A stretch of 64,000 nucleotides of DNA from an uncultured Bacilli bacterium (GTDB lineage Bacteria; Bacillota_I; Bacilli_A; RF39; UBA660), in assembly GCA_947632115.1 (NCBI GenBank), contig CANROB010000003.1, forward strand, positions 14,919-78,918, given 5' to 3'. The position numbers and the translations under genes were made by a program. Below, in pieces: positions 6,766 to 63,316 of this stretch (the stretch's first letter is position 1; each line of letters starts with the position of its first letter). Below the pieces are notes generated by a model that did not search any database, was not told the origin of the DNA, and saw only the letters and a list, made by a program, of their open reading frames with translations.

Positions 6766-6796
6766 ATAAAAAAAATCACCAATTGGTGATTTTTAG
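6766..6796 (-). terminator. rho-independent terminator after xseB
   Basis: On the minus strand: AAAATCACC-AATT-GGTGATTTT followed by a T-run, just downstream of the xseB stop at 6803. Confidence 0.8.
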
Positions 6797-6802
6797 ATGT
6801 TT

Positions 6803-8784: not shown

Positions 8785-8860
8785 CCCAATCACCTAGTAT
8801 TATTTTAACATAAGAACCTAAAAATGAGAACAGAAAACAAAAAAATAAGAGGATTTCCTC

Positions 8861-41182: not shown

Positions 41183-41923
41183 CTATGAAGAGATTTTTTC
41201 TAAAGATTCTCTTTTAAAATAACCTGTCGTTCCTTTTTTATTTCCAACTCTATAGGGATATTCTTCCCCTTCATAAATTTCTAAAATAATACGTTTCCAA
41301 CCAATCGCTTTTTGGTGGAAGGAAGAAGTAGCGGTGGCACTACTGGCGTATTCCCCAATTATTTTTACTCTATCTCCTACTTTTAATTCCTCTGGATTCT
41401 CTTTAGAAGAATCATCCTCTTTCTTCCAACGAGCTTCTAAGCTAATATCTTTAGAAATTCCTTTTGTAAAATCAAAGACTTCATCCCCGATATACCAGCC
41501 TAAAAAAACATATCCTTCTTTCACAGGATAAACAGGTTCAATCGCTTTTTCCCCTGCCATAATAAATTCTTCCTCTACTGGTGATCCACCGTTTGATTGA
41601 AAAGTAACCGTATAAGTTAAATCCGATACAGAAACTTTCTTTTCCCATTTGGCGACTAACTCAAAGCGACCTTTTACTTTAGAGTTAAAATCATATTTTT
41701 CGCCATCTTTTTGCCAGTATAGAAAGTTGTATCCTTCTTTTACTGGTTCTACTGGTTCTTCTACTAAATTTCCTACTTTGATAAGTTCGCTTTCTACGGG
41801 AGTTCCTCCATCAGAATCAAAAGTGATTAGGTATTGATTGCCCAAAAATAAAGAATAAAGAACCACAGCCACCGTAATAAAAATGACTACAGCTAAAACA
41901 ATAAAAACATTTTGTTTTTTCAT
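41183..41923 (-). CDS. membrane-anchored protein with two InlB B-repeat (Listeria-Bacteroides repeat) domains
   Basis: N-terminal TM helix, then two copies of TF.S.GG(T/S)PVE...V.EP..P.KEGY.F.GW. Start at 41923, after an AGGAGGG RBS. Confidence 0.8.
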   Translation of the reverse strand: MKKQNVFIVLAVVIFITVAVVLYSLFLGNQYLITFDSDGGTPVESELIKVGNLVEEPVEPVKEGYNFLYWQKDGEKYDFNSKVKGRFELVAKWEKKVSVSDLTYTVTFQSNGGSPVEEEFIMAGEKAIEPVYPVKEGYVFLGWYIGDEVFDFTKGISKDISLEARWKKEDDSSKENPEELKVGDRVKIIGEYASSATATSSFHQKAIGWKRIILEIYEGEEYPYRVGNKKGTTGYFKRESLEKISS

Positions 41924-41999
41924 AGAAAACCCTCCTGATACTACCCTTATTAGCTCCATTATACAAACATTTAAAATTCTTTGTCAAGAAAACTTTTTA

Positions 42000-42671
42000 T
42001 TATTTATAAAGTATTTTTAGGCGATTAATTACTTTCTTTTCAATGCGAGAAATATAAGATTGACTAATACCTAAAGTGGCCGCTACTTCCTTTTGGGTCA
42101 TTTCTTCTTGATTGTTTAAACCATAACGCAAAATCATAATTTCTTTATCCCGTTTATTTAGTTTTTCAATCTCTTCATACATTAATTTTTTTTCTGTTTC
42201 TTTTTCTAGACCTCGTGTCACTAAATCTTCTTCGGTTCCTAGAATATCTTCTAGGCGAAGTTCATTTCCTTCACTATCAAAACTTAAACTATCTTCAAAA
42301 CTAACCTCACTACGCCGTTTTTTGTTTTTTCTTAAGAACATCAAGATTTCATTATCAATACAGCGGGAAGCATACGTGGCAAGTTTAATATTCTTATCTT
42401 GATTATAGGTATTAATGCCTTTAATTAATCCAATGGTTCCAATGCTTACTAAATCCTCTAAATCAATTCCCGTATTTTCATATTTTTTAGCAAGAAAGAC
42501 AACAAGACGAAGATTATGTTCAATTAGTTTTTCTTTACCAGCATCCCCTAGACCTAAATAATAAAGCTCTTCTTCCTTGGATAACGGTTCTGGTAATTTA
42601 TCTAAACTTCCTACAAAATAAACCGGTTTACGAAAAAAGCGTAATAAGAACTGCCATATTTTTTTAATCAT
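42000..42671 (-). CDS. sigE: sporulation sigma factor SigE (pro-sigma-E)
   Basis: Pro-sequence, then YFVGSLDKLPEPLSKEEE, HNLRLVVFLAKKYENTGI..EDLVSIGTIGLIKGINTY and KLATYASRCIDNEILM, closely like B. subtilis SigE. It lies directly downstream of spoIIGA. Confidence 0.9.
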   Translation of the reverse strand: MIKKIWQFLLRFFRKPVYFVGSLDKLPEPLSKEEELYYLGLGDAGKEKLIEHNLRLVVFLAKKYENTGIDLEDLVSIGTIGLIKGINTYNQDKNIKLATYASRCIDNEILMFLRKNKKRRSEVSFEDSLSFDSEGNELRLEDILGTEEDLVTRGLEKETEKKLMYEEIEKLNKRDKEIMILRYGLNNQEEMTQKEVAATLGISQSYISRIEKKVINRLKILYK

Positions 42672-43428
42672 CGGATCCTCCCATCATCGAATGATGCAAT
42701 AAAAAGTCTACCCCATCTAGAGCAATTTCTTCTTCCATAATTCCTAGATAAACATTTCTCCATAACTCTTTTTCTATCCAAATTTCTTTTAGAAAAATTC
42801 CTTTTAAAATTCCTATCCCTGAAGCAGTCTGATAAGGAATTAAGATATTTTCGTCCCCTTTTAACTCTTCTTTTTTAGAAACTAAAATAACAGGTCTTCT
42901 TTTATAAGTAAGACAGTTCCCACTATCAAAATATCCAACTCCCTTTATTTTTCGTTTGAAAAGCGTAAAAGAAACTTCCTGGTAAAGATTATATTGTTCC
43001 TTTAAACTTTTCATCTTTCGAACGTAATAAGCAATCGCAATCGGCGCTAAAAAAAGAAGAAGGAAAAAATTCATGGCATAACTATTGCCAAAAAGAGTAG
43101 TTGGAAAACTGATATTCCAAAGGTAGATTACGCCTCCTAAGACAATACTGACAAAATAAAAATACGTAATATTTTTCCAAAAATAGCGGAAATTGTGATA
43201 CGAAAAAGCAATTAAGATAAGAACCATACTTACTCCAATTTTTAAAAGGAAAAGAAAGAAATTTGAAAGTGGGAAAAAGAGGAAAAAAACACTAAAACTT
43301 CCTAGAAAGGATGAAGCAACAATGCGATAAAAAGAGATTTTTCTCTTTAATAAATACCCCACACTTAAAAGGAGAAAGCAATCGATTAGGAAATTAAAGA
43401 AAAGGAGTAGATCTAAATAAACTTTCAA
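42664..43428 (-). CDS. spoIIGA: sigma-E processing peptidase SpoIIGA
   Basis: Five N-terminal TM helices and a C-terminal aspartic protease domain with the FDSGN motif. It overlaps sigE by 8 nt. Confidence 0.85.
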   Translation of the reverse strand: MKVYLDLLLFFNFLIDCFLLLSVGYLLKRKISFYRIVASSFLGSFSVFFLFFPLSNFFLFLLKIGVSMVLILIAFSYHNFRYFWKNITYFYFVSIVLGGVIYLWNISFPTTLFGNSYAMNFFLLLFLAPIAIAYYVRKMKSLKEQYNLYQEVSFTLFKRKIKGVGYFDSGNCLTYKRRPVILVSKKEELKGDENILIPYQTASGIGILKGIFLKEIWIEKELWRNVYLGIMEEEIALDGVDFLLHHSMMGGSDD

Positions 43429-44595: not shown

Positions 44596-45846
44596 CTATT
44601 GTTCGTTAAAAAAATATCCAAATAATTTTCCTAACATGCTATCACGTGTTGCTTCAACCGGTACTTTTTGAACGTCTGCCAATCGAGAGGCATCCTCATT
44701 TCCTACCATTGAATAATTCTTGCCTTGTAATTTTAACTTACTAATAAAGTAAACAATATTTCCTACGCAAGATGAAAATTTGTTATCTCGGATACCTAAT
44801 AATTTGATATTTCCAATACTGACATTCTTTCCTAAAACAAAAGAAGCCGTGTACTCAATATCCACCATATTACTAGTACCACCTGTTATTATCATATAAT
44901 CAATTTTCTTCGTTGTCAATATATTCATCTCTTTTTTTGCTAGATTTAAAATCTCTTCTAGCCTAGAAGAAACAATTTCTGAAACCTCAAATTGATTCAC
45001 TTTTAAAGCACTATCTAGAGAAGTAGAAATCTCATACATATCCCCTGTAGAAGCATTTCTTTTATTCGCTAAAGCAAAGTGATGTTTTAATTCTCTAGAG
45101 GTAGTTAAATCGGTTTTATACATATAAGCGATATCATTATCAATATTTTTACCACCCATAGGAACTACAGAACTTTTTACAATCACACCTCGATTATAAA
45201 GAGAAATACTTGTTGTTTCACTACCAATATTTAAAATTATTCCTACTTTTTCTTCCATCTCTTTATTTTTAAAGGCATATAAATCACCAATATTATTTAA
45301 AGTGATATCGACAACTTCAATACCAAGAGACTCTAAAAGGCTGATAACCGAATAGACATTCTTCTCAGGAGTACTTACCAAAACTCCTCTTACACTTAAT
45401 TTCTCACCTTTTTGATTTGTTGGATTCTTAAGAGGAAGAGAATCATCTACCTTAAAATCCACTGGTAACATAGTTACAAATTCTCGTTTTTCTAGCTTTT
45501 TAGAAGCAACCGCTGCTTGTATAACAGAAGTAATTTCTAAAGAACTAACAATTCCTGTTTCTTCTGGAATATCTACTGTTGCTTTTACAATCGAATATTC
45601 TGAAAAATAAGAAGGAACTGAAACGATTACGCGGCGTATCGGAATACCAATTTTAGATTCGATATCAAAAAGAGCTCCTCTAACAGATTTTCCTGCCTCT
45701 TCGACATCCGTAATCAGTCCTTTTTTTATTCCTTTTGAAGGAAAAGATGATGCTGCAAGCAAATTGAGTTTATTTTGATAAAGCTCACAAACTACCACTT
45801 TTATACTATCAGAACCAATATCCATGCTAGTATAAATATGCTTCAT
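44596..45846 (-). CDS. ftsA: cell division protein FtsA
   Basis: Actin-fold ATPase (DIGSDSIKVVV, NIGSETTSISL, ITGGTS) immediately upstream of ftsZ. Confidence 0.95.
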   Translation of the reverse strand: MKHIYTSMDIGSDSIKVVVCELYQNKLNLLAASSFPSKGIKKGLITDVEEAGKSVRGALFDIESKIGIPIRRVIVSVPSYFSEYSIVKATVDIPEETGIVSSLEITSVIQAAVASKKLEKREFVTMLPVDFKVDDSLPLKNPTNQKGEKLSVRGVLVSTPEKNVYSVISLLESLGIEVVDITLNNIGDLYAFKNKEMEEKVGIILNIGSETTSISLYNRGVIVKSSVVPMGGKNIDNDIAYMYKTDLTTSRELKHHFALANKRNASTGDMYEISTSLDSALKVNQFEVSEIVSSRLEEILNLAKKEMNILTTKKIDYMIITGGTSNMVDIEYTASFVLGKNVSIGNIKLLGIRDNKFSSCVGNIVYFISKLKLQGKNYSMVGNEDASRLADVQKVPVEATRDSMLGKLFGYFFNEQ

Positions 45847-46001: not shown

Positions 46002-48101
46002 TTAAACAGCATTTTCTGAAACATTTGGTTCCTCCTGATTAAAAATAATATCTCTTGAAACAATCATTTTATAATCAGCAGAAGATATATCCACAATCAT
46101 TTTTTCTCCCCACGTACTAACAACCAAATCGTCTTTGCTGGTAAAACCAGTAATCGTCATAGCATGACTTTCGCCATTTTTCATGTAGCAATCTCCTCGT
46201 TCCCCAGTAACTGGATCAACAGTATATAAATCATATCCGAAAGAATTCAGCTCGATAGTTTTCCCACTCTTCAAGTTTTCTTTTATTTTATCAATATCTA
46301 TTGGAGGCTCTGGTGGTTTTTCCGCCATTGTTTTTGAATCATAGTAATAATCATATAACGTTTCAGCATCAAATTGATAATCCTCAGCTGGTATTTTTTC
46401 TTCTAAAAATTTTCTTAGAGAACTGGTTCTCGCAAGAGAATAGGATACAGAGAAAAAGTTAAAACTTTCTAAAGGAGAAATGGTGTCGCGTTTTTTTTCT
46501 AAATAATTCTCCACTGTTAAATCTGCAAATTTTTCCTCTTCTGTTTCCTTGTCTCTTTCCTCATCTGTTTTTTTCAAAAAATCATAAATTTCAGTAATAT
46601 CATGTCCAGACCAATAATAAGAAAAGAGTTCCATTGTCAAATAGGTATAATTATATTTTTTTACCCCGTTCGAATTAACGGTATACATATCGTATCCAAA
46701 ATATTTTCTGAATAAGTCTTCTTTTCCTTCAAACTGATCAAAAATAAAGTTAGACATCGCAACATATCCGCAACCACAGTTAGTCAATTGCTGAAAAAAT
46801 AAGCAATAGTCTAATTCATCCGCATCGGGATATTTCTCTTTTAAAAAATTACTAACCCATTCATCTTCTAGAAGTTCATCGGTATGAAAATCAAAATAGT
46901 CTTGATTCCCGCCATAAGTTCCTGTGTAAATATTGAATTTAGAAAAAATTCCTCCCTTTTGCTCTTCGCTCCAATCTCCTACACATCTAATCAAATCTCC
47001 ATAACCCTCATAAGTTAAAGAACGACCATCTTTAAAGTGAACAATCATAAATTTATCATAAACAGTCACACGAGAAATCGTAGAAAGATTCATACTATCA
47101 GCGGTATAAAGAGATAAAAATTTATCCGTTTGTTCATCTTTAAAGGAAACATCATAACTATTTCCATGAAATCGAATATTAGAGATAGCATCTTTTGGAA
47201 CTTCAAAATCTCCAACAACCACAAAATTATCCCCCTGAATATAAAGAGGAGCATCAAAACCAGGAAGATACAAACTCAGCGACTCTCTTTCTCCATCTGA
47301 GTTTAACCACTCCGTACTCAAATCACAAAGGGCATCCAAATTTGACAGTTGAATTCCCTCTTTTTCCCAGATAGTTTCTGTTATTTTTTGACTAAAATAA
47401 TTTGTAACTGTACCATCGAAATAACTAGATCTAAGTATTACAGGTTGAAGAACCTCATCCCAAGAAAAGAAAACACTTCTTATATAATCCTCAATTTTTT
47501 GTAAAATGGGATTTTCTTGAGTAGAAACATGACAAACAGGATTTTTTCGTTTTACAATTCGATTCGTTTTATCATAAACAAGATATCCATTACCAGTCAA
47601 ATGAACGGTTACCGTATTTTTTTCTACCCGAACGTTTTCAACTAACTTACTATCAATATATAATCCATCGGGTAAAAAAACTTGTCCTAATTGATTAGGG
47701 TATAAAGAAATGGTATATCCCTTTTTATCGGTAGAAATATCAGCAACTTCTTCAGCAAGTATTTGCATTCCGTTATCTAAAACAAAACAATTTCCGTCAT
47801 CTGATAGTTTAGGAAGTCTTTCATTAAAATCTGAATTTTCATGGTCAAAAATTCCCGCCTTAAAATCCTCAAGCGTAATACCAAATTTCTCTAAAATTTT
47901 ATTAACTCTTTCTTCTGCATTAGTAACATTTTCTTTCACAAAAGAAAGTGTTTCTTCTATAGGATTATTCCCTGCTTTTTCATGGTCGGTTTTTTCACTG
48001 GAGGTAGCATTTGTCTGTTGATAAGAACCAATACTACTATTTTTTAATCCGTTATAGTCACTATTGAATGTTACTTTCGCCCTTTCAAATCCTTCTGCCA
48101 T
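46002..48101 (-). CDS. array large protein, copy 4 in transcription order (699 aa); putative papain-fold Cys/His C-terminal domain
   Basis: Intact ORF with a GAGGTGA RBS, 10 nt after the small gene's stop. Conserved MAEGFE.. N-terminus. GCGY (Cys444, nt 46770-46772) and SHAMTITG (His646, nt 46164-46166) followed by VSTWG. Confidence 0.85.
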   Translation of the reverse strand: MAEGFERAKVTFNSDYNGLKNSSIGSYQQTNATSSEKTDHEKAGNNPIEETLSFVKENVTNAEERVNKILEKFGITLEDFKAGIFDHENSDFNERLPKLSDDGNCFVLDNGMQILAEEVADISTDKKGYTISLYPNQLGQVFLPDGLYIDSKLVENVRVEKNTVTVHLTGNGYLVYDKTNRIVKRKNPVCHVSTQENPILQKIEDYIRSVFFSWDEVLQPVILRSSYFDGTVTNYFSQKITETIWEKEGIQLSNLDALCDLSTEWLNSDGERESLSLYLPGFDAPLYIQGDNFVVVGDFEVPKDAISNIRFHGNSYDVSFKDEQTDKFLSLYTADSMNLSTISRVTVYDKFMIVHFKDGRSLTYEGYGDLIRCVGDWSEEQKGGIFSKFNIYTGTYGGNQDYFDFHTDELLEDEWVSNFLKEKYPDADELDYCLFFQQLTNCGCGYVAMSNFIFDQFEGKEDLFRKYFGYDMYTVNSNGVKKYNYTYLTMELFSYYWSGHDITEIYDFLKKTDEERDKETEEEKFADLTVENYLEKKRDTISPLESFNFFSVSYSLARTSSLRKFLEEKIPAEDYQFDAETLYDYYYDSKTMAEKPPEPPIDIDKIKENLKSGKTIELNSFGYDLYTVDPVTGERGDCYMKNGESHAMTITGFTSKDDLVVSTWGEKMIVDISSADYKMIVSRDIIFNQEEPNVSENAV

Positions 48102-48111
48102 ATTTCACCTC

Positions 48112-48765
48112 TTATAAATAATCTACATATGTTTTTTCTAATATCGTGACTAAAACAGGAAGTTTTCCTATCAATTTTCTTTCGAAAGTTCTAGAAAATT
48201 CTTGAATAAAGAATTTTTGAACTTTCAAGTTTTCAATAAATTCTTTTCCTCTAACAATATTTTCATTCTTTCCACAGTGAAAAGCAATCACTAGGTTTTT
48301 ACTATCGACAATATTTTTTGGTATCATTGCCCCATAACAGGTAGTTGTGGCTTCTTCATAAACTCCTCTTCTATAGTTATCACGAATTACTTCTGGGTAA
48401 GTTTTTTTCACAACTTCAAGAACAGCCTCATCTACCTTTTCTTTTTCCTTTAAAAGGTCAATATCTTCTGTTTCTAGTTTTTCGATAAATAAAAAATTAC
48501 GAATATAAAAATACTTAGAAGGAGATACTTTTTGATAAGGATTTTTTCTTTCTTCTGGTACTACACCAAAATCTAGATGGATTTCTTCTACCACTTTATC
48601 GCATTGTAATAGGTCAAAATAATGAGCTAAAACTTGATATAAACCTTCTCGATAAATACGCTCTATCTTCTCATAAAGGGTATAATCCTCTTTCCTAATA
48701 AGTCCTTTTTCTTCGGTCATTTGTTGATTGATGAAATCTTTTTGTCTTTTTATTTCTTCTATCAT
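48112..48765 (-). CDS. array small partner protein, copy 3 (217 aa), unknown function
   Basis: Intact ORF with an AGGAGA RBS. No TM helix or signal peptide. 11 of 217 residues differ from the copy at 53145..53798 (hand count). Confidence 0.85.
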   Translation of the reverse strand: MIEEIKRQKDFINQQMTEEKGLIRKEDYTLYEKIERIYREGLYQVLAHYFDLLQCDKVVEEIHLDFGVVPEERKNPYQKVSPSKYFYIRNFLFIEKLETEDIDLLKEKEKVDEAVLEVVKKTYPEVIRDNYRRGVYEEATTTCYGAMIPKNIVDSKNLVIAFHCGKNENIVRGKEFIENLKVQKFFIQEFSRTFERKLIGKLPVLVTILEKTYVDYL

Positions 48766-48794
48766 AAGGATTTCTCCTATCTTTTATTAATATT

Positions 48795-48823
48795 ATTATA
48801 TCAATCCATAACAAAGTCGGTAA
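48795..48823 (-). promoter_or_regulatory. sigma-A-type promoter of array unit (TTACCG, 17-nt spacer, TGaTATAAT)
   Basis: -10 TATAAT at 48800-48795 with TG at -15/-14, and -35 at 48823-48818. The same architecture sits upstream of all three small genes. Confidence 0.6.
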
Positions 48824-48862
48824 TCAAAAGAAATATTAACCAAGGTCTGCCTCATCCTTTAT

Positions 48863-50977
48863 CTATTGAATAGCCTCATCTAAAACGTTTGGTTCCTCTG
48901 TATTTAAAGTAATATCTCTTGAAACAATGGATTTATAAGTCGCGGAAGATATATCCGCAATCCATTTTTGACCCCACGTACTAACAATTAAGTCTCCTTC
49001 TTTGGTAATATCAGTAATCGTCATAACGTGACTTTCGCCTTTTTCCATGTAGCAATCTCCACGTTCCCTAGTAACTGGATCAACAGTATATAAGTCATAT
49101 TCAAAAGCACTCAACTCGACAGTTTTCCCACTTTTCAACTCTTCTCTTATTTTATCAATATCTATTGGAGGTTCTGGTGGTTTTTCCGCCATTGTGTCTT
49201 TATCGTAGTAATAATCATATAATTCTTCTACATCAAATTGATAATCCTCAGAGGGTATTTTTTCTTTTAAAAAGTCACTTAAGCAATTTGTACGTGTAGA
49301 TACGTCTGATCCATTAAAAGGCACAAATCCTACTAAAGAAGTATAGATATCGGTCCTTTTTTCAAAATGATTTCCCACTGTTAAATCTGCAAATTTTTCC
49401 TCTTCTTTTTCTTTATCTCTTTCCTCGTCCGTTTTTTTCAAAAAATCATAAATTTCAGTAATATCATATCCAGACCAATAGTAGGAGAAAAGTTCCGTTG
49501 TCAAATACTTATAGTTATATGTTTTCACTCCACTAGAATCAATGGTATACATATCGTACCCAAAATATTTTTTAAATAAATCTTCTTTGCCTTCAAACTG
49601 GTCAAAAATACAATTGGCTAATGAAATATATCCACAACCACGATCAGTCAATCGCTCAAAAAATAAATAATAGTCTAACTCATCCGCATCGGGATATTTC
49701 TCTTTTAAAAAATTCGTAATCCATTCATCTTCTAAAAGTTCGTTGGTATGGGAAGAAAAGTAGCCTTGATCTCCGCCATAATATTTTACATAACTATTGA
49801 ACTCAGAAAAAATTCCTCCTTTTTGCTCTTTTTTCCAATTTCCCTCACAGTTCATAAAGTCACCATAAAGTTCATAAGTCAAAGACCTGCCATCCTTAAA
49901 ATGAACAACCATAGAATCATTATTCATCGTAATATGAGAAAGGGAGGAAGTATCAAATTCTGTCATGGAAGGATTAGAAAGAGTTAACGTCTCATGCTTC
50001 CAGTTATCTTTAAAGAATACATCATAACTATTTTCATGAAGACAAATCTCAGAAACAGCATCTTCTGAAATCTCAAAAGCCCCATAAGTCCAAAGTTTAT
50101 TATCGCGAATGAGAATAGGATTAGTTAAATTACGGGCATATAAAAATAAACTTCCCTCATCACCCTTCCACTCTATGGTTTTTCCACTATATCCATAAAA
50201 TTGATCTAAATTTGATAATTGGATTCCCTTTTCAGCCCATAGAGCTTCTGTTGTTTTTTGGCTAAAATAATTCCATGTTGTTCCCTCAACATCATCCTTA
50301 AATGTTTCCGTTATTATCGGATGAAGAACCTCATCCCAAGAAAAGAAAACACTTCTTATATAATCATCAATTTTTTGCAAAATAGGATTTTCTTGGGTAG
50401 AAACATGATAAACAGGATTTTTTCGTTTTACAATTCGATTCGTTTTATCATAAACAAGATATCCATCATCAATCAAATGAACGGTGGTTGTATCTTTCTC
50501 TACCCGAATATCTTCAACTAACTTACTATCAATATATAATCCATCGGGTAAAAAAACTTGTCCTAATTGATTAGGGTATAAAGAGATGGTATATCCCTTT
50601 TTATCAGTAGAAATATCAGCTACTTCTTCAGCAAGTATTTGCATTCCATTATCTAAAGTGAAACAATTTCCATCATCTGATAGTTTAGGGATTCTTTCAT
50701 TAAAATCTAATTTGTCATGACTAAGAATTCCTTCCTTAAGTTCATTTAGTGTAATGCCTAATTTTTCTATAATCCGATTGATATTTTCTTTGGCATTAGT
50801 AACATTTTCTTTTACAAAAGAAAGCGTTTCTTCTATAGGATTATTCCCTGTTTTTTCATAGTCAGTTTTTTCACTGGAGGTAGCATTTGTCTGTTGATAA
50901 GAGCCAATACTACTATTTTTTAATCCACTATAGTCACTATTTAATGTTACTTTCGTTTTTTCAAATCCTTCTGCCAT
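48863..50977 (-). CDS. array large protein, copy 3 (704 aa from the homologous ATG); no intact small gene upstream
   Basis: Start placed at the ATG at 50977 (MAEGFEK), by homology with the other copies. The track uses an upstream GTG. It carries the GCGY and SHVMTITD...VSTWG motifs. Confidence 0.85.
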   Translation of the reverse strand: MAEGFEKTKVTLNSDYSGLKNSSIGSYQQTNATSSEKTDYEKTGNNPIEETLSFVKENVTNAKENINRIIEKLGITLNELKEGILSHDKLDFNERIPKLSDDGNCFTLDNGMQILAEEVADISTDKKGYTISLYPNQLGQVFLPDGLYIDSKLVEDIRVEKDTTTVHLIDDGYLVYDKTNRIVKRKNPVYHVSTQENPILQKIDDYIRSVFFSWDEVLHPIITETFKDDVEGTTWNYFSQKTTEALWAEKGIQLSNLDQFYGYSGKTIEWKGDEGSLFLYARNLTNPILIRDNKLWTYGAFEISEDAVSEICLHENSYDVFFKDNWKHETLTLSNPSMTEFDTSSLSHITMNNDSMVVHFKDGRSLTYELYGDFMNCEGNWKKEQKGGIFSEFNSYVKYYGGDQGYFSSHTNELLEDEWITNFLKEKYPDADELDYYLFFERLTDRGCGYISLANCIFDQFEGKEDLFKKYFGYDMYTIDSSGVKTYNYKYLTTELFSYYWSGYDITEIYDFLKKTDEERDKEKEEEKFADLTVGNHFEKRTDIYTSLVGFVPFNGSDVSTRTNCLSDFLKEKIPSEDYQFDVEELYDYYYDKDTMAEKPPEPPIDIDKIREELKSGKTVELSAFEYDLYTVDPVTRERGDCYMEKGESHVMTITDITKEGDLIVSTWGQKWIADISSATYKSIVSRDITLNTEEPNVLDEAIQ

Positions 50978-51020
50978 AAACACCTCTTATAAATATCTAT
51001 AAAAATATCTTTTTTCTTTG
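50978..51020 (-). pseudogene. probable relic of the 3' end of a deleted small partner gene
   Basis: CACCTCTTATAAATA (plus strand) is identical to the stop/RBS junction of the intact small-large pairs. It is followed by degenerate similarity (TCTA.A...TTTTTTCT) to the last codons of the small genes. Confidence 0.5.
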
Positions 51021-51046
51021 ATAAGAAAATTATCTTACCTAATCCA

Positions 51047-53134
51047 TTACTTGGCACTACCTTCACTAATCGTTTCAGAAATAATAGTAGCTCTTTTTGC
51101 ATCCGATACATCTACAATCAGTTTTTTACCCCAAGTACTAACAATTAAATCTCCTGATTTAGTTACACCGGTAATCGTCATGGCGTGACCTCCTCCATTT
51201 TTATGAACCCTTTTTCCTCGTTCTCCAGTAGTGGAGTCAATTAGATATAAATCATATCCAGATGCACTTAACTCAAGAAATCTTCCTTGCTCTAATTCTT
51301 TCTTTATGTTATTAAGAGTCATATCGTAGACTATTTTATCAGCGCCGATTAAAGCATCAGCTTTCTCATAAGGAAAATACAATTCTTCATAAGAATACTC
51401 GAAATTGCTTGGAAGTTTTTCTTTTAAAAATTTTTCTAAGCATTCTGCTCTTTCTAAAATCGTAGATCCATCAAAGTCATCATATTCATCTAAACATTCA
51501 TCTATTTTCTTTTCTTTTTCATCAAAATTCTCTACCGTTAAATTTGGTATTTCCTTGCCTAAATAATCATAAATTTCTGTGATATCATGTCCAGACCAAT
51601 AATAAGAGAATAGTTCTAATGTCAAGTATTTATAATTATAATTTTTAAGTCCATTTTCATTAACGGTATACATATCATATCCAAAATACTCTTTAAACAA
51701 GTCTTCTTTTCCTTCGAACTGTTCAAAGATAAAATTAGACATGGCAACATATCCGCAACCACAGTTAGTCAATTGTTGAAAAAATAAATAATAGTCTAGT
51801 TCATTCGCATCGGGATATTTCTCTTTTAAAAAATCAGTAACCCATTCATCTTCTAGAAGTTCCTCAACATTGTAAGCAAAGTAATGTTGATCCCCACCAT
51901 ATTGATACGCATAATAGTTTAAATCAGAAAAAATACCATTTATTTCCTCTTCTTTCCAATCCCCACTATATCCTGATAATTCTCCATACTCTTTATAAGT
52001 CAATGTTCTACCATCCTTAAAGTGTACTTCTATATAGTCTTTATAAACAACAACACGAGAAATATCACAAAGATCAATACTCACATCAGAATAGGAGCAG
52101 GTAAAAGCGTCATTCTTTCCTCGATCGCGGAAAGAGATCTCATAACTATCACTATTAAAATGAATATCAGAAATGGCCTTTGTAGGAAGCGTGAAAAATC
52201 TCATAACAGAAAAATCTTTTTCCTTGATATTAATAGAAGAGTCAAAATCGAGAAGAGAAAGTTTTAAGTAAGAATTTTTACCAGATTTATCTGAAATTTC
52301 ATAACTTTCGTCATAATGTTGATCTAACCCTGATATCGTAATGCCTTCTCTTTCACATAAGGATTCAAACGTTTCCTGACTGAAATATTTTTTTTCATTT
52401 TTAGAATCTGTGGTAGTGGAAATGACAACAGGATGAATGATATCTTCCCAAGAAAAGAAAACATTTTTTAGATAATATTGAACGATTCCAACCATGTTTT
52501 TTTTATCTGGAGGTATTTGATAACAAGGTTTTCTACGGTCAAGTACCTTACCATCTTTATCTAAAACAAGATAGCCATCTCCAGCTAAAGTAAGCGTTAT
52601 CTTATCTTCTGTTACTGTAATTTTTTTTACTTCACCAGAATCGATATATAATCCTCCTGGTAATAGAGTTTGACCATTTTGACTAGAATCAATAGAAATG
52701 GTATATTCCTCTTGACCAAAAGAAATATCAGTTACTATCTTAGTAGGTATCTGTAGATTATTCTCAAAGTGAAAATAACTGTCGTGAATAGAAAAAGGTA
52801 ACATCTTCCCAGTAAAATTTACATCCGCACCGAAAACGTTTCCTTTCGCATCTACAGTTTGATAGCCACCATCGATATAGGAGCAATCCTCACTATCATT
52901 GATATCTATTCCTAACCCTCTAAAGACCTTACCTAAGTCAGAATTTGAAAAAGGGACACTTTCCGTAGTGTTACTTTGACTCATCCTTACTGAATTAGGA
53001 TTCTCGCCAGAATAGCAATCAGTTTCAGAAAAGGATTCTATCCCATTTTGCCCTGAAGATTGAGGATGAGTCGTTTTAAGGCCATTATAGTCATTATTTA
53101 ATGTTATTTTCGTTTTTTCAAATCCTTCGGCCAT
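51047..53134 (-). CDS. array large protein, copy 2 (695 aa), the most divergent paralogue
   Basis: Same first 20 aa and the same C-terminal motifs (NCGCGYVAMSN, GGGHAMTITG, VSTWG). Residues ~20-220 and the linker are strongly diverged. Confidence 0.85.
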   Translation of the reverse strand: MAEGFEKTKITLNNDYNGLKTTHPQSSGQNGIESFSETDCYSGENPNSVRMSQSNTTESVPFSNSDLGKVFRGLGIDINDSEDCSYIDGGYQTVDAKGNVFGADVNFTGKMLPFSIHDSYFHFENNLQIPTKIVTDISFGQEEYTISIDSSQNGQTLLPGGLYIDSGEVKKITVTEDKITLTLAGDGYLVLDKDGKVLDRRKPCYQIPPDKKNMVGIVQYYLKNVFFSWEDIIHPVVISTTTDSKNEKKYFSQETFESLCEREGITISGLDQHYDESYEISDKSGKNSYLKLSLLDFDSSINIKEKDFSVMRFFTLPTKAISDIHFNSDSYEISFRDRGKNDAFTCSYSDVSIDLCDISRVVVYKDYIEVHFKDGRTLTYKEYGELSGYSGDWKEEEINGIFSDLNYYAYQYGGDQHYFAYNVEELLEDEWVTDFLKEKYPDANELDYYLFFQQLTNCGCGYVAMSNFIFEQFEGKEDLFKEYFGYDMYTVNENGLKNYNYKYLTLELFSYYWSGHDITEIYDYLGKEIPNLTVENFDEKEKKIDECLDEYDDFDGSTILERAECLEKFLKEKLPSNFEYSYEELYFPYEKADALIGADKIVYDMTLNNIKKELEQGRFLELSASGYDLYLIDSTTGERGKRVHKNGGGHAMTITGVTKSGDLIVSTWGKKLIVDVSDAKRATIISETISEGSAK

Positions 53135-53144
53135 ATTTCACCTC

Positions 53145-53798
53145 TTATAAATAATCTACATATGTTTTTTCTAATACCGTGACTAAAACAGGTAGTTTTC
53201 CTACTAATTTTCTTTCGAAAGTTCTAGAAAATTCTTGAATAAAGAATTTTTGAGCTTTTAAGTTTTCCATAAATTCTTTTCCCCTAACAATATTCTCGTT
53301 TTTTCCACAGTGAAAAGCAATTACTAAATTTTTACTATCGATAATATTTTTAGGTATCATCGCCCCATAACAGGTGGTTGTGGCATCTTCATAAACACCT
53401 CTTCTATAGTTATCACGAATCACTTCAGGGTAAGTTTTTTTAACAACTTCAAGAACAGCCTCATCCACTTCTTCTTTTTCTTTTAAAAGGTCAATATCTT
53501 CTTTTTCTAGTTTTTCGATAAATAAAAAATTACGAATATAAAAATATTTAGAAGGAGATACTTTTTGATAAGGGTTTTTTCTTTCTTCTGGTACTACACC
53601 AAAATCTAGATGAATCTCTTCTACCACTTTATCGCATTGTAATAAATCAAAATAATGAGCTAAAACTTGATATAAACCTTCTCGATAAATACGTTCTATC
53701 TTCTCATAAAGAGTATAATCACCTTTCCTAATAAGCCCTTTTTCTTCAGCCATTTTTTGATTGATGAAATCTTTTTGTCTTTTAATTTCTTCTATCAT
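53145..53798 (-). CDS. array small partner protein, copy 2 (217 aa)
   Basis: Intact ORF whose stop lies 10 nt upstream of the large gene's ATG (TAA-GAGGTGAAAT-ATG). Confidence 0.85.
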   Translation of the reverse strand: MIEEIKRQKDFINQKMAEEKGLIRKGDYTLYEKIERIYREGLYQVLAHYFDLLQCDKVVEEIHLDFGVVPEERKNPYQKVSPSKYFYIRNFLFIEKLEKEDIDLLKEKEEVDEAVLEVVKKTYPEVIRDNYRRGVYEDATTTCYGAMIPKNIIDSKNLVIAFHCGKNENIVRGKEFMENLKAQKFFIQEFSRTFERKLVGKLPVLVTVLEKTYVDYL

Positions 53799-53827
53799 AA
53801 AGTATTCTCCTATCTTTTACTAACAAT

Positions 53828-53856
53828 ATTATACCAATCCATCATAAAATCGGCAA
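53828..53856 (-). promoter_or_regulatory. sigma-A-type promoter of array unit (TTGCCG, 17-nt spacer, TGgTATAAT)
   Basis: -10 at 53833-53828, TG at -15/-14, and -35 at 53856-53851. Confidence 0.6.
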
Positions 53857-53868
53857 TCAAAGGAAATA

Positions 53869-56007
53869 TTAAGGAAGACCTACCTCATCTTTTACCCATT
53901 GAATAGCCTCATCTAAAACATTTGGTTCTTCCGTACCTAAAGTAATATCTCTTGAAACAATTGTTTTATAAGTAGCTGAAGATATATCCACAATCAATTT
54001 GTTTCCCCAAGTACTAACAACCAAATCTCCTTTTTTGGTAACACCCGTAATCGTCATAGCGTGGCCTCCACCATCTTCTATATAGCAAAATCCTCGTTCC
54101 CCAGTAACTGGATTAACAGTATATAAATCGTATCCAGAAGAAGCCAATTCAATCGTTTTTCCGCTTTTCAACTCTTCCCTTATTTTATCAATATCTATTG
54201 GAGGTTCTGGTGGTTTTTCCGCCATTGTCTCTTTATCATAGTAATAATCATATAACGTTTCAGCATCAAATTGATAATCCTCAGCTGGAATTTTTTCTTC
54301 TAAAAATTTTTTTAAACATTCCGTTCTAGGAGCAGGAACTGGTCCCCGAAAGGCTTCAAATTGATCCAAATCATCTTTGATATACTCCCTTAACAAAGAA
54401 TAATTTTCTGCTGATAAATTTGAATTTTTGTACTTTTCCTGTTTGATTAAATAATCATAAATGGAGGTAATATCATAATCAGACCAATAGTAAGAGAAAA
54501 ATTCCGTTACCAAATATTCATAATTATATTTTTTTGCTCCATCAGAATCAACGGTATACATATCGTATCCAAAATATTTTTTGAATAATTCTTCTTTTCC
54601 TTCAAACTGTTCAAAAATACAATTGGCTATCGCAATATATCCACAACCATGGTTAGTTAATTCATCAAAAAACAAGTAATAGTCTAGTTCATCCGCATCG
54701 GGGTATTTTTCCTTTAAAAAATTCGTAATCCATTCATCTTCTAAAAGTTCATCAATATGAGGGAAAAAATTGTGATGATTTCCTCCATAAGTTCCTGTGT
54801 AACTATTAAATTCAGAAAAAATTCCTCCCTTTTGCTCTTCGCTCCAATCCCCAGTAGAACTGACAGATTCATCAGAACTATTATAAGTCAAGGAACGACC
54901 ATCCTTAAAATGAATGATCATAGAATCATTATAAACAGTAACATAAGAAATCGAAGAAAGGCTAAAACTAGCAGAAAGGCTACAAAGTTCAGAACTATAA
55001 ACGGTGAAAGGTTTATCTATTAATCCCTCTTTGAAATAAACATCATAACTATTTTCATGAAAGCGAATATCAGAAATAGCATCTTTTGAGATTTTAAATG
55101 CTCCATCAACTAGGAAAGTATCCCTTTGAACAAGAAGAGGAGTATCAAAATCACGGAGAAATAAACTCATCGACTCTCTTTCTCCATCTGGGTTTAACGT
55201 CTCCATGCCGGTATCACAAAGGACGTCTAAATTTGATAGTTTAATTCCTTCATTTTCCCATAAGGTTGTTGTTGTTTTCGAATCAAAGTAATGATATGTC
55301 GTAGCTTCACCATTAAGATCATGCGATGTAAAAATACTAGTTACGACAGGATGAAGGATATCTTCCCAAGAAACAAAGACACTTTTTATATAATCATCAA
55401 TTTTTTGCAAAATGGGATTTTCTTGGGTAGAAACATGACAAACAGGCTTTTTTCGTTTTACAATTCGATTCGTTTTATCATAAACAAGATATCCATCACC
55501 AGTCAAATGAAGGGTTGCCGTATTTTTTTCTACCCGAATATCTTCGACTAGGTTACTATCAATGTATAATCCATCCGGTAAAATAATCTTCCTTGTTCGA
55601 TCAGGCTTTAAAGAAATAGTATATCCCTTTTTATCAGGAGAAATATCATCTACTTCTAAATAAGAAATCTGCATTCCATTATCTAAAATGAAAAAGGCAT
55701 AATCATCCGAAAGTTGAGGGAGTCTTTCGTTAAGATCTGAATTTTCATGGTCAAAAATTCCCGCCTTAAAATCCTCAAGCGTAATACCAAATTTCTCTAA
55801 CATTTTATTAATTCTTTCTTCTGCATTAGTAACATTTTCTTTCACAAAAGAAACTGTATCTTCTATAGGATTATTCCCTGCTTTTTCATGGTCGTTTTTT
55901 TCACCGGAGGTAGCATTTGTCTGTTGATAAGAACCAATACTACTATTTTTTAAGCCACTATAGTCACTATTGAATGTTACTTTTGCTTTTTCAAATCCTT
56001 CTGCCAT
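53869..56007 (-). CDS. array large protein, copy 1 (712 aa)
   Basis: Intact ORF with the same N-terminus and C-terminal motifs (HGCGYIA, GGGHAMTITG, VSTWG). It carries a 9-aa C-terminal extension relative to copy 3 (TGG where copy 3 has TAG). Confidence 0.85.
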   Translation of the reverse strand: MAEGFEKAKVTFNSDYSGLKNSSIGSYQQTNATSGEKNDHEKAGNNPIEDTVSFVKENVTNAEERINKMLEKFGITLEDFKAGIFDHENSDLNERLPQLSDDYAFFILDNGMQISYLEVDDISPDKKGYTISLKPDRTRKIILPDGLYIDSNLVEDIRVEKNTATLHLTGDGYLVYDKTNRIVKRKKPVCHVSTQENPILQKIDDYIKSVFVSWEDILHPVVTSIFTSHDLNGEATTYHYFDSKTTTTLWENEGIKLSNLDVLCDTGMETLNPDGERESMSLFLRDFDTPLLVQRDTFLVDGAFKISKDAISDIRFHENSYDVYFKEGLIDKPFTVYSSELCSLSASFSLSSISYVTVYNDSMIIHFKDGRSLTYNSSDESVSSTGDWSEEQKGGIFSEFNSYTGTYGGNHHNFFPHIDELLEDEWITNFLKEKYPDADELDYYLFFDELTNHGCGYIAIANCIFEQFEGKEELFKKYFGYDMYTVDSDGAKKYNYEYLVTEFFSYYWSDYDITSIYDYLIKQEKYKNSNLSAENYSLLREYIKDDLDQFEAFRGPVPAPRTECLKKFLEEKIPAEDYQFDAETLYDYYYDKETMAEKPPEPPIDIDKIREELKSGKTIELASSGYDLYTVNPVTGERGFCYIEDGGGHAMTITGVTKKGDLVVSTWGNKLIVDISSATYKTIVSRDITLGTEEPNVLDEAIQWVKDEVGLP

Positions 56008-56017
56008 ATTTCACCTC

Positions 56018-56671
56018 TTATAAATAATCTACATAGGTTTTTTCTAATACTGTGACTAAAACAGGTAGTTTTCCTACTAATTTTCTTTCGAAGGTTCTAG
56101 AAAATTCTTGAATAAAGAATTTTTGAGCTTTTAAGTTTTCAATAAATTCTTTTCCCCGAACAATATTCTCATTTTTTCCACAATGAAAAACAATTACTAA
56201 ATTTCTACTATCAATAATATTTTTAGGTATCATCGCCCCATAACAGGTGGTTGAAGTTTCTTCATAAACGCCTCTTCTATAGTTATCGCGAATGATTTCT
56301 GGGTAGGTCTTTTTCACAACTTCAAGAACAGAATCATCTACCTCTTCTTTTTCTTTTAAAAGGTCAATATCTTCTTTTTCTAGTTTTTCGATAAATAAAA
56401 AATTACGAATATAAAAATACTTAGAAGGAGATACTTTTTGATAAGGGTTTTGTCTTTCTTCTGGTACTACACCAAAATCTAGATGGATTTGTTCTACCAC
56501 TTTATCGCATTGTAATAAATCAAAATAGTGGGATAAAACTTGATATAAACCCTTTCGATAAAGGCACTCTACCTTTTCATAAAGAGTATAATCCTCTTTC
56601 CTAATAAGTCCTTTTTCTTCTGCTAATTGTTGATTAATGAAATCCTTTTGTCTTTTTATTTCTTCTATCAT
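56018..56671 (-). CDS. array small partner protein, copy 1 (217 aa)
   Basis: Intact ORF. About 19 of 217 residues differ from the copy at 53145..53798 (hand count). Confidence 0.85.
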   Translation of the reverse strand: MIEEIKRQKDFINQQLAEEKGLIRKEDYTLYEKVECLYRKGLYQVLSHYFDLLQCDKVVEQIHLDFGVVPEERQNPYQKVSPSKYFYIRNFLFIEKLEKEDIDLLKEKEEVDDSVLEVVKKTYPEIIRDNYRRGVYEETSTTCYGAMIPKNIIDSRNLVIVFHCGKNENIVRGKEFIENLKAQKFFIQEFSRTFERKLVGKLPVLVTVLEKTYVDYL

Positions 56672-56746: not shown

Positions 56747-57526
56747 TTACTTTTTCTTTTCTTTCTCATAAGGATCTAGGTATTCCCCACCTTCTAAGTG
56801 TAGAACGCCTTTTTTTTCATTCGAACCTTCTAAATATTCAATATAATTATAAATTCTTTGAAACTTGGATTTTCCATTTTCTGTTTCTAAAGTTGCATAA
56901 ACATAATTGCCATCATTCATAGAAATCAAAAACAACTGCGTATCCTCTTCATCTGGAGTATATCGTATTTCAGACATTCTACTTAAGATATCAAGAGGTA
57001 CTCCTCCCATTTCTTGAATAAAGTTTTCTAAGACATCCGAAGGGACTTGATTTAAAAGCGTTGGAACAGCAAAAGTATCCTCTACTTCTTCTCCACTTTC
57101 TAAAACTGTTTTTCCTGTTGTTTCATAATAGAAAAGAGGTCTATTTTCATCTACCGTAATCACAACTTTCGTAAACCAATTTTTCTTCTCTACTTTCGCA
57201 GATTGGATATAGATATTTTTCTCAATATTTTTACGAATCAAATAACTTGGAGTCTTTAAAGTACTAGGATAATCTCGAATAAGAGCCATATCAATAATCT
57301 CTTGATCTCGAAAAAACTCATTATCCTTAACAATAATAGATTGGATAGGTACTTGAAAAAGTAACCACCCCACTAAGGCAATGATAAGAAGAAAAATGAA
57401 AAAGAAAAGAATTTTCACATACTGAATCTTACGTTTTTTCTTTTTCTTTTCTCTTTCTTTTTCTTTTTGAAGAGCAATCCTTGATTTATCGGAATGCTTT
57501 AATTCTTGCCTTTTTTCTTTTTTCAT
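56747..57526 (-). CDS. ftsQ: cell division protein FtsQ/DivIB
   Basis: Basic N-terminal tail, one TM helix, and a POTRA-like domain (IQSIIVKDNEFFRDQEI). It sits downstream of murB in the dcw cluster. Confidence 0.8.
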   Translation of the reverse strand: MKKEKRQELKHSDKSRIALQKEKEREKKKKKRKIQYVKILFFFIFLLIIALVGWLLFQVPIQSIIVKDNEFFRDQEIIDMALIRDYPSTLKTPSYLIRKNIEKNIYIQSAKVEKKNWFTKVVITVDENRPLFYYETTGKTVLESGEEVEDTFAVPTLLNQVPSDVLENFIQEMGGVPLDILSRMSEIRYTPDEEDTQLFLISMNDGNYVYATLETENGKSKFQRIYNYIEYLEGSNEKKGVLHLEGGEYLDPYEKEKKK

Positions 57527-59606: not shown

Positions 59607-60416
59607 TTAAATTTGATATATTTTTGGTTTTACCTGGCTATCCTCTTCTGGAAGAAGAGAATCAAGATGACTAGGCATCTCCCCACGGCGAAGGAAAAAG
59701 TTGACATCCTCTGTCACCATTGGTTTTCTTTTTCTTCTTCTTTTAAAGAAACAGTCTATCTGTTCGTTTTGCGAACAAAGTTTCCGGCTCTCCTTAGAAA
59801 TTTTGGTAAGTTGTTCTTTAGAAATCTCTTCAGGAGTTAATCCTAACGCCTCTAAAACGCCATATAAAGCGATACACGTTTGATGATTTAAATATTCCTC
59901 TAAACGATATTCTTCTAATTTCTCTTTTCTAAAAACCTCTAAAGAAGAACTAAGGAACTGTTTCTCATCACTTTTGATAGGAAGTAAAAGAGCGTAGACT
60001 CCTTCCCGATTTCTTCGTTTGTTAATTCTTCTAATATTGGCTTTTATTTCTGCCCGTAAGCCTAAGCGTTCCTCTAAAAACCAAGAAAAGGTTCCATACA
60101 TCATCATCATTTCAGAAAGTAAAAGATTTTCATTTAATCTTTCTTCTCCATTAGAAGTTACTCTACGATTTTTGTAAAAGCATTGAAATACATCTTGAAC
60201 AGAAGCATCTCCTAGAAATAAATAATTACTTTTCAAACCTCTTTTATGAATGATTTCTTTTTCTCTTCTTAAAAGATGTACTACTTCTCCCATATCGGAA
60301 GTTATTTGGGTTACCAATACCGATAAAGTATTAGAGATATCTTCCCTTTCTATTTCACTCAATTGATTTTTTTCTAATTCTAATAAATGAGCACTAATTG
60401 CCCTGTTTTTCAGCAT
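59607..60416 (-). CDS. hypothetical protein
   Basis: 269-aa basic/helical ORF with a GGAGGA RBS. I recognise no motif. Confidence 0.6.
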   Translation of the reverse strand: MLKNRAISAHLLELEKNQLSEIEREDISNTLSVLVTQITSDMGEVVHLLRREKEIIHKRGLKSNYLFLGDASVQDVFQCFYKNRRVTSNGEERLNENLLLSEMMMMYGTFSWFLEERLGLRAEIKANIRRINKRRNREGVYALLLPIKSDEKQFLSSSLEVFRKEKLEEYRLEEYLNHQTCIALYGVLEALGLTPEEISKEQLTKISKESRKLCSQNEQIDCFFKRRRKRKPMVTEDVNFFLRRGEMPSHLDSLLPEEDSQVKPKIYQI

Positions 60417-62249: not shown

Positions 62250-63261
62250 GTTCTTCCTCCTTTAATAATTCGTAAATACGTTTATTATACTCTTTTCTTC
62301 GCTCAAAAAATAGCTTATTTTCTCTTGTTGGATAAACGCGATTAGAAAGAATGATTAAAATGAGTTTTTGCTCTTGATCAATTAGAAATTCACATCCCGT
62401 AAATCCGGTATGGAAAATTGCTTTTTTGCTTGCAAACTCTTTGGTATCCGGGTAAGTACTAGCAAGCATCCAACTATAACTTCTTGCTACTTTAGAAGAA
62501 GAGATAATGGTTTTCTTAAAAAGGCAGTTGATACTTTTTTTCGTTAAAAATGTACCATCATTAAAAAGTAGTTTTTTTCCAAATTGTAGTAAATCAGATG
62601 GTGTACTAAAAACCCCTGCGTGGCCTGCTACTCCGTTTAAAAAGTAGGCTTTCTCATCATGAACTATCCCCCACAAAAGACCCCTTTCTTTCGTATCTTC
62701 CGTAGGAGCACATTCTTCTTTTTTGGGATGAAATGTGGTTTTATCCATAGAAAGAGGTTTAAAAATCTTTTGTTCTGCTAGAACATCTAAAGGCGTATCA
62801 TAAATTTTTTCCATTAAAAAGCCTAAAAGAATATAATTTAAATCCGAATAGATGACATCCGCTCCAGGTTCATTCTTTTGAGATATTTTGGTAAAGAATT
62901 CTTCTTTACTTGTTAAATGATACTTATCATAAGTAGGAACTAAACCAGAAGAATGATTGAGTAAATGGATGAGTTTTATATCAGGATAAGGAAATGTCGG
63001 AAAATATTGGCAAAAAAAGTCAGAAGAAGAAACCATTCCCTTTTCTTCTGCCATTAAAAATAAAGTATTAGTCACAACGACCTTAGTAAGGGATGCAATA
63101 TCATAAAGGGTATCCTTGGTTGTCTTTTTATTCTCTAAAGAAGAAATCATTCCAGCTGAATCAATGATAGTTTTATCTTGATAATAAATGGCATAACTAA
63201 CCCCCGGAAAAATTCCTTCTTTGACTAATTCTTCAAAATAATCATGTAACTTCTCTTTCAT
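62236..63261 (-). CDS. serine hydrolase (beta-lactamase/PBP4*-like family)
   Basis: SxxK motif (ASLTKV), a YSD motif (similar to YxN), and a HTGFTG (KTG-like) motif. Confidence 0.8.
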   Translation of the reverse strand: MKEKLHDYFEELVKEGIFPGVSYAIYYQDKTIIDSAGMISSLENKKTTKDTLYDIASLTKVVVTNTLFLMAEEKGMVSSSDFFCQYFPTFPYPDIKLIHLLNHSSGLVPTYDKYHLTSKEEFFTKISQKNEPGADVIYSDLNYILLGFLMEKIYDTPLDVLAEQKIFKPLSMDKTTFHPKKEECAPTEDTKERGLLWGIVHDEKAYFLNGVAGHAGVFSTPSDLLQFGKKLLFNDGTFLTKKSINCLFKKTIISSSKVARSYSWMLASTYPDTKEFASKKAIFHTGFTGCEFLIDQEQKLILIILSNRVYPTRENKLFFERRKEYNKRIYELLKEEEHGLY

Positions 63262-63316
63262 ACTATCACGATATCATTGTAACACAAATTCCCTATCAAA
63301 AAAAGAGGAACGAAAA

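Follow-up and report, generated by a model that had tools for sequence, protein, structure and literature searches.

We analysed a stretch of 64,000 nucleotides from an uncultured Bacilli bacterium (GTDB lineage Bacteria; Bacillota_I; Bacilli_A; RF39; UBA660; GenBank assembly GCA_947632115.1, contig CANROB010000003.1, positions 14,919 to 78,918 of the forward strand), hereafter called the window, whose DNA is low in GC (about 32%). Its minus strand carries a 10.7-kb array of four large and three small genes (46002-56671) inside the dcw cell-division cluster, co-directional with it and placed between a divIB/ftsQ-like gene with a POTRA_1 domain (56747-57526) and ftsA (44596-45846). The order along this strand is murG, murB, the divIB/ftsQ-like gene, the array, ftsA, ftsZ, spoIIGA and a gene for a sigE-like sigma factor, and the first terminator-like site on the strand of the array lies beyond ftsZ (43514-43493). 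Read 5' to 3', the array encodes proteins of 217, 712, 217, 695, 706, 217 and 699 residues (Table 1). The same array junctions in the dcw cluster are present in two other metagenome assemblies (L001 and L002). We were mainly interested in the C-terminal domain of the large proteins, which displays papain-like features, and in its relation to the 217-residue proteins encoded next to it.

Table 1. Features of the array, with positions in the window and residue numbers of the 699-residue protein unless stated otherwise.
Feature	Position (nt)	Strand	Remark
699-aa large gene	46002-48101	-	open reading frame
N-terminal part of the 699-aa protein, residues 1-383	46953-48101	-	acidic, lineage-specific
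C-terminal papain-like (C39-like) peptidase domain (predicted), residues 384-699	46002-46952	-	family profile covers residues 386-686
Y396-G-G-N-Q400 loop	46902-46916	-	candidate for the oxyanion hole (Gln400); G-G/A pair similar to a double-glycine site
Cys444 codon, predicted nucleophile	46770-46772	-	kept in 212 of 212 homologues
His646 codon, predicted general base	46164-46166	-	kept in 209 of 212 homologues
S662-T-W-G665	46107-46118	-	Ser662 at the papain Asn175 position, Trp664 at papain Trp177 (hhalign)
217-aa partner gene, copy 3	48112-48765	-	predicted cognate immunity protein or inhibitor
706-aa paralogue	48863-50983	-	Cys450 at 49634-49636; His652 at 49028-49030
695-aa paralogue	51047-53134	-	most divergent copy; Cys460 at 51755-51757; His650 at 51185-51187
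217-aa partner gene, copy 2	53145-53798	-	94.9% identical to copy 3
712-aa paralogue	53869-56007	-	Cys455 at 54643-54645; His649 at 54061-54063
217-aa partner gene, copy 1	56018-56671	-	90-91% identical to copies 2 and 3

The four large proteins align end to end, with 45-70% identity to the 699-residue copy. An initial annotation of this DNA had proposed that their last 300 or so residues share a papain-like Cys...His...(S/T)-W-G arrangement and form a thiol peptidase, transglutaminase or acyltransferase domain, and had tentatively placed the catalytic pair at Cys444 and His646. We found both residues, as well as the (V/I)-V-S-T-W-G segment, exactly where it had put them. Three blocks are invariant in all four paralogues (G443-C444-G445-Y446, H646-x-M-T-I-T and V661-S-T-W-G665), so that each copy retains the predicted catalytic residues. 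Because the four domains are 55-72% identical across their whole length, such invariance among the paralogues is by itself weak evidence. The alignment also bears out the observation that a Gln stands six residues before the Cys in two copies only, and the acidic insert reported between the two catalytic halves, KKTDEERDKE(T/K)EEEKF, is indeed there, although in just two of the paralogues.

A better measure of conservation came from more distant relatives. A word-indexed search with the whole protein retrieved the protein itself and one paralogue only, with 2 proteins above 40% identity among 5.8 billion; the 695-residue paralogue is present in public data as protein P0002. Profile searches with the C-terminal domain yielded 9 and then 90 homologues, and an exhaustive hidden Markov model search of 1.84 billion representatives gave 682 clusters (at 50% identity) with E-values up to 1e-3, in which the matches were nearly all confined to profile positions 380-670 or so. 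A scan of genome contigs located only four loci. The family comes mainly from metagenome assemblies, human-gut samples included. It is covered by no Pfam or NCBIfam model, and PDB sequence-profile searches found no solved structure of it; scans of NCBIfam, PADLOC and PHROGs returned nothing usable, and no precomputed Pfam domain was present on any protein among the word-indexed matches listed.

We counted residues in 212 full-domain homologues, mostly at 20-40% identity. Cys444 is kept in every one of them and His646 in 209, the remaining three having gaps there. The segment that follows is nearly as constant, with Ser662 in 202 homologues (and Thr in four more), Trp664 in 197 and Gly665 in 207, and no other Cys or His is conserved in the family. 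Beyond the residues highlighted in the initial annotation we detected a further motif, Y396-G397-G398-x-Q400, in a loop that precedes the Cys by 44 residues: in this Y-G-(G/A)-x-Q loop, Tyr is found in 180 of the 212, Gly397 in 207, Gly or Ala at the next position in 174 and 28, respectively, and Gln400 in 205. Two asparagines are similarly constrained, Asn451 (Asn in 198, Asp in 13) and Asn484 (206). The family signature can be written YGGxQ...GCGY...H...SSWG. Such conservation is far above chance and, as far as sequence can tell, marks the Cys and the His as functional residues. One detail of the earlier description needs correction: the position of the papain Asn, given there as Ser or Thr, is occupied by the invariant Ser662, and it is the next residue, equivalent to papain Ser176, that varies between Ser and Thr. 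In the 712-residue copy the loop reads YGGNH (residues 407-411, nt 54775-54789, minus strand), His being found at the Gln position in 2 of the 212 homologues, and this copy may be a weakened or altered enzyme.

Several comparisons bear on the fold of this domain. A Pfam scan of 94 members with E-values up to 1 produced matches that were all below the gathering score: Peptidase_C39_2 in 30 of the 94 (best E-value 5e-4), Peptidase_C70 in seven and Amidase_6 in two. These three recurring families are all papain-like, and no unrelated family occurred in more than four members among the 25 families listed. The C39_2 matches always placed the half running from the His to the SWG motif on profile positions 44-139 or so of 143. 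An AlphaFold2 (AF2) model of the domain built from a 94-sequence alignment (model residue n being protein residue n+383) had a mean predicted local distance difference test score (pLDDT) of 91 and a predicted template-modelling score (pTM) of 0.90, the acidic insert alone being of low confidence. In this model Cys444 is residue 61, the first of a helix spanning 61-73 (pLDDT about 98 there), and His646 is residue 263, the first of a strand spanning 263-270; Ser662 is located on the following strand (276-280), which Trp664 and Gly665 immediately follow, and Gln400 sits in a well-ordered loop. The Cys at a helix N-cap and the His at a strand start are the placement that the papain-like reading called for. 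An earlier model from a four-sequence alignment (pLDDT 67), together with its Foldseek run, was superseded by this one.

When the model was compared with known structures by Foldseek, the PDB matches of highest probability were IdeS/Mac-1 (0.75), procerain B (0.47), 9l5u (0.38) and calpains 8, 9 and 3 (0.28-0.38), and those in BFVD included, each with a probability of 0.75, a protease of the calpain family and a C1A peptidase. The expected resemblance to clan CA therefore appeared among the highest-probability matches, but none of these was significant, and ranking by E-value put unrelated folds at the top. Finally, hhalign of the family profile against a papain sequence gave a single alignment, which paired H646 with H159, S662 with N175 and W664 with W177; its probability being 1.3%, it is not evidence of family membership. 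Each of these four lines (Pfam, AF2, Foldseek and hhalign) is weak alone, and the papain-like reading rests on their agreement, together with the invariance of the residues throughout the family. We consider it very likely that the domain is a Cys-His enzyme of the clan CA type. By sequence, it could be a peptidase, a deamidase/transglutaminase or an acyltransferase.

The position of the domain within its proteins and of the genes within their genomes points to a possible function. Among 226 homologues the domain is always at the extreme C-terminus (median tail 1 residue, maximum 33), behind N-terminal extensions of 0 to 614 residues. Of 11 independent loci, five (L004, L006, L010, L011 and L015) have genes for an EssC-like ATPase and WXG100 proteins, sometimes with YukD, within 10 kb of the protease gene, and at L010 and L015 a run of WXG100 genes stops directly before it. 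As a type VII secretion system takes up an estimated 20 kb or so of a genome, five loci out of 11 represent a large excess. In addition, an N-terminal profile of the homologues of about 400 residues weakly matches EsxA/EsxB structures, and T7SS_ESX_EspC is weakly matched by three members. The other matches from PDB sequence and profile searches, designed helical repeats and coiled coils, were dismissed as noise. Of the type VII loci in Bacilli metagenome-assembled genomes, L006 is the clearest. There, a protein of 1123 residues (5460-8831) that ends in the same protease domain is encoded right after EssC, a YukD-like gene and a 93-residue gene, and is followed by a 230-residue homologue of the 217-residue protein and then by WXG-like genes.

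The large proteins of the window have no signal peptide and no transmembrane segment (maximum 19-residue Kyte-Doolittle hydropathy of 0.78 in the N-terminal part of the 699-residue protein), and this N-terminal part, like its counterparts in the other three large proteins, matched nothing in Pfam or NCBIfam. It may contain a marginal internal repeat, in which residues 58-185 or so resemble residues 230-372 or so (score 45 against 29.9 ± 4.8 for shuffles, shuffle maximum 46), each half opening with a helix and 'GI(T/Q)L' within an acidic region of about 385 residues. By eye, homologues from Bacilli metagenome-assembled genomes (L003, P0006) have similar repeated helix-plus-beta modules, P0006 with one weak PepSY match.

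The 217-residue proteins also recur with the protease. Homologues of about 180-230 residues are encoded directly downstream of the protease gene in L003, L006, L007, L008/L009, L010, L012 and L015. A tblastn search with the 217-residue protein detected those of L003, L006 and L007 (E-values 2e-13 to 5e-20), jackhmmer started from the same protein also recovered the copies of L010 and L012, and the resulting profile picked up L008/L009 and L015. A second jackhmmer search from the L008 protein converged on the same set of partners. A beta-lactamase-like open reading frame of the window (62239-63273) was drawn into a late iteration, which we regard as profile drift. The 217-residue protein is predicted to be soluble, with no signal peptide or transmembrane segment, and has no Pfam match; residues 91-150 of copy 3 weakly match phrog_24487 (E-value 4.8e-4), a family of unknown function.

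Taken together, the C-terminal placement of the domain, its linkage to secretion loci and its recurrent partner suggest that the family is probably a new C39-like protease toxin with its cognate immunity protein, that is, a toxin-immunity module. Polymorphic-toxin peptidases had been mentioned in passing in the initial annotation, and they turn out to be the best functional frame. In our proposal, the last 300 or so residues of each large protein would form a cysteine peptidase domain with the papain fold, nearest to the C39/C39_2 branch of clan CA, and this domain would be the toxin end of polymorphic-type toxins behind interchangeable N-terminal regions. Cys444, at the helix N-cap, would act as nucleophile and His646, at the strand start, as general base; Ser662-x-Trp664 on the neighbouring strand would replace papain Asn175-Ser-Trp177, and Gln400 of the Y-G-G-x-Q loop probably supplies the oxyanion hole. 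The 217-residue partner would block the protease in the producer. Since signal peptides and transmembrane segments are absent from both the partner and the large proteins, neutralisation, and hence the target, would be cytoplasmic. The protease may cleave a cytoplasmic protein of a rival cell, which would thereby be killed or arrested; Cpe1 attacks GyrB and ParE in this manner. Whether this applies in full to the bacterium studied here is a different matter: a type VII system may export the copies encoded in the window, but we consider this somewhat less likely than not.

A number of observations weigh against this proposal. With regard to the enzyme, none of the similarities to known peptidases is significant by itself. 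The gathering threshold of C39_2 (24 bits) is reached neither by the window paralogue (12.7) nor by the highest-scoring member listed (P0047, 19.3); Foldseek E-values were no better than 0.045 and TM-scores ranged from 0.15 to 0.26 (0.19 or less in PDB), and PDB sequence and profile searches found no relative. The third position of the triad, 16 residues after the His, is Ser and not Asp or Asn, and no Asp or Asn is conserved after the His; some clan CA enzymes do act as dyads. With regard to export, six of the 11 loci, the window included, show no type VII secretion genes within 10 kb, and none is present in the entire window. No Pfam LXG or WXG100-type domain was detected in the window proteins, and hhalign of their N-terminal 385 residues or so against the WXG-like N-termini of the homologues found no similarity (1.7% probability). 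With regard to the array itself, the 217-residue gene of the window ends 10 nucleotides upstream of the large gene and has its own promoter-like site, whereas elsewhere the partner is downstream, so that the unit in the window looks like partner first and protease second, the reverse of the other loci. The three partner copies are 90-95% identical, against only 55-72% for the four protease domains, and all four paralogues carry one type of domain, unlike the varied toxin ends of classic polymorphic arrays.

Some of these points would fit better with proteins that stay in the cytoplasm. With the same fold and the same partner, the window genes could encode a housekeeping or developmental protease-inhibitor pair tied to cell division or sporulation, which would suit a co-directional array lying between divIB and ftsA, upstream of ftsZ, spoIIGA and sigE, with no terminator-like site until past ftsZ. 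The window proteins have neither an export signal, a membrane segment nor a recognisable secretion domain, and the lack of type VII genes nearby agrees with such a role. Nevertheless, we judge this unlikely: homologues have genomic surroundings of unrelated kinds (type VII and polysaccharide loci, a prophage-like region), a fixed C-terminal domain with a variable N-terminus is typical of toxins, four diverged tandem copies are unusual for a housekeeping gene, and close homologues are as rare as the whole-protein search revealed. We are similarly sceptical of a different chemistry for the Cys-His pair, which might deamidate or transglutaminate protein glutamines, transfer acyl groups, or strip off ubiquitin-like or lipid modifiers. 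In favour of such an activity are the presence of deamidases, transglutaminases and acyltransferases in clan CA, the Ser in the third triad position, and the conserved Gln400, Asn451 and Asn484, which have no assigned role other than the one that we tentatively give to Gln400. Polymorphic toxins themselves include a Tox-TGase domain (PMC3482391). However, the families matched repeatedly are peptidases only (C39_2 and C70), and the nearest characterised toxin so related, Cpe1, is a true endopeptidase.

Two further explanations seem to us very improbable. The domain may be akin to NlpC/P60 or CHAP enzymes and hydrolyse peptidoglycan, as an amidase or an endopeptidase; its substrate would then be the cell wall, and its role that of a toxin or of a hydrolase at the division site. 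Its location in the dcw cluster, the weak Amidase_6 matches of two members and the NlpC structures that Foldseek matched to the first, less confident model could be read this way, but NlpC/P60 was no longer near the top with the better model, and neither NlpC/P60 nor CHAP is among the 25 Pfam families listed. Moreover, the window proteins have no LysM, SH3 or similar wall-binding domain, and an enzyme and a partner that both lack an export signal or membrane anchor point to neutralisation and action in the cytoplasm. Alternatively, the likeness to papain may be a coincidence, with the Cys and the His serving another role, for example metal binding, in another fold. Low TM-scores and similarities that never reach statistical significance alone would be expected in that case. 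Yet independent weak signals meet on one clan, and the model has the layout of papain, its Cys capping the N-terminus of a helix, its His opening a strand and its Ser-x-Trp-Gly lying on the following strand; a metal site, in turn, normally needs more than one Cys and one His, and the family conserves no others.

The protease toxin-immunity module that we favour has its closest counterpart in Cpe1/Cpi1. Cpe1 is a C39-like papain-fold toxin of E. coli, delivered by a type VI secretion system (T6SS) or by contact-dependent inhibition (CDI), that cleaves GyrB and ParE after Gly-Gly, and its immunity protein Cpi1 competes for substrate binding (PMC12136450). As we propose for the proteins studied here, Cpe1 (PDB 9l5u, which was among the Foldseek matches of both AF2 models) is a C-terminal papain-fold protease toxin of the ComA/LahT C39 branch with a small soluble partner encoded alongside. 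It differs in being about 140 residues long, in having a Cys-His-Asp triad and in its Gram-negative hosts, where the carriers are PAAR, VgrG, Rhs and CdiA, whereas the window domain has about 300 residues with long helical inserts, a Ser in the third position, and a Firmicutes, type VIIb-linked distribution. No similarity of the family to Cpe1 was found at the sequence level in PDB profile searches, and the partner family, which has no Pfam match, is unrelated to Cpi1.

Among peptidase families, Peptidase_C39_2 (PF13529), with ComA and LahT, shares the Cys-then-His order and is the only one matched repeatedly. Even so, no member reaches its gathering score, the Cys half is unaligned, and the conserved Gln and the Cys are some 44 residues of helices apart, where C39 and papain have about six. 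No ABC domain is fused to the protein or encoded beside it, and the Gln-x5-Cys oxyanion motif is not found. Papain and the C1 family have the same order of Cys, His and x-S-W-G; the domain differs from them in the replacement of Asn175 by Ser, and it lacks a propeptide, disulfides and the Gln that stands six residues ahead of the Cys.

The family also resembles the papain-like domains Tox-PL1, Tox-PL2, Tox-PL3 and Tox-PLC39 of polymorphic toxins (Zhang et al., 2012, PMC3482391), which likewise occupy the extreme C-terminus behind variable N-termini and come with immunity proteins of their own; Tox-PL1, too, is associated with type VII (WXG) export. Their published signatures are NC-H-DxQ (Tox-PL1), C-NxxH-DN (Tox-PL2), C-[DE]H-[DE]-R (Tox-PL3) and C-H-D (Tox-PLC39), and Tox-PLC39 is listed with type II secretion (T2SS), T6SS and PVC export (PMC3482391). 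The present family differs by its YGGxQ...GCGY...H...SSWG signature and its type VII link; its distinction from Tox-PLC39 is based on the published signature and export links. No Tox-PL Pfam model was among the 25 families listed. With the type VIIb LXG toxins (TelA-E, EsaD, YeeF) it has in common relatives that adjoin EssC, YukD and WXG100 genes and a partner gene downstream, although no Pfam LXG match was found in the family. Full-text literature searches turned up no cysteine protease among characterised type VIIb toxins; EssH is described as a cell wall hydrolase recruited to enable effector secretion. The family is new and unmodelled, while its general kind is already known.

If our proposal is right, it would account for the four large and three small genes of the window that could not be annotated, and the family could justify two new domain models. 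Most protease toxins of interbacterial competition characterised to date belong to the T6SS and CDI systems of Gram-negative bacteria, as Cpe1 does, and this gene pair offers a ready means of testing whether Gram-positive bacteria antagonise each other by proteases, and of identifying the cellular target. By analogy with the Gly-Gly specificity of C39 peptidases and of Cpe1, one could also speculate that the Y-G-(G/A)-x-Q loop is a built-in double-glycine site, which is self-cleaved or acts as a pseudo-substrate until delivery. We regard this as improbable. If it were true, a free protease of about 300 residues would be released from its carrier, and the family would represent a type VII protease toxin that releases itself, has a Cys-His-Ser arrangement and is paired with an immunity protein of new fold; in this genome it would be transcribed together with the cell-division operon.

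Regarding the layout of the array, an identical promoter-like site (TTGCCG-17-TATAAT, TG-extended) stands ahead of two of the three 217-residue genes, at 56730-56702 and 53856-53828 on the minus strand, and the duplicated unit seems to consist of this promoter, then the 217-residue gene, then the large gene. The promoter scan of the window overall gave 63 sites against 64.8 expected from shuffles, that is, no better than chance. The 706-residue paralogue has no 217-residue gene in front of it. In L001, a 314-residue open reading frame (323-1264) upstream of a 217-residue gene comprises the protease domain alone, preceded by an N-terminal fragment in a different frame; this split paralogue could be a pseudogene or an assembly error.

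On two unrelated contigs, common genes were found downstream of the protease and its partner (L008, 11232-15020; L015, 11224-15400), encoding proteins of about 260 and 270-290 residues and an Mbeg1-like protein of about 550 residues. A type VII locus adjoins one of these contigs' genes and not the other's, which suggests a larger conserved island behind the protease-partner pair.

Within the window, a 269-residue open reading frame with no Pfam match (59607-60416, minus strand) is located between a uvrC-like gene and murG. On the other side of the array, ftsZ is followed by spoIIGA (42664-43428) and the sigE-like sigma factor gene (42000-42671), both on the minus strand, as in spore formers. 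The next gene after it is not sigG; it encodes a protein with the Listeria-Bacteroides repeat (Flg_new; 41183-41959, minus strand).

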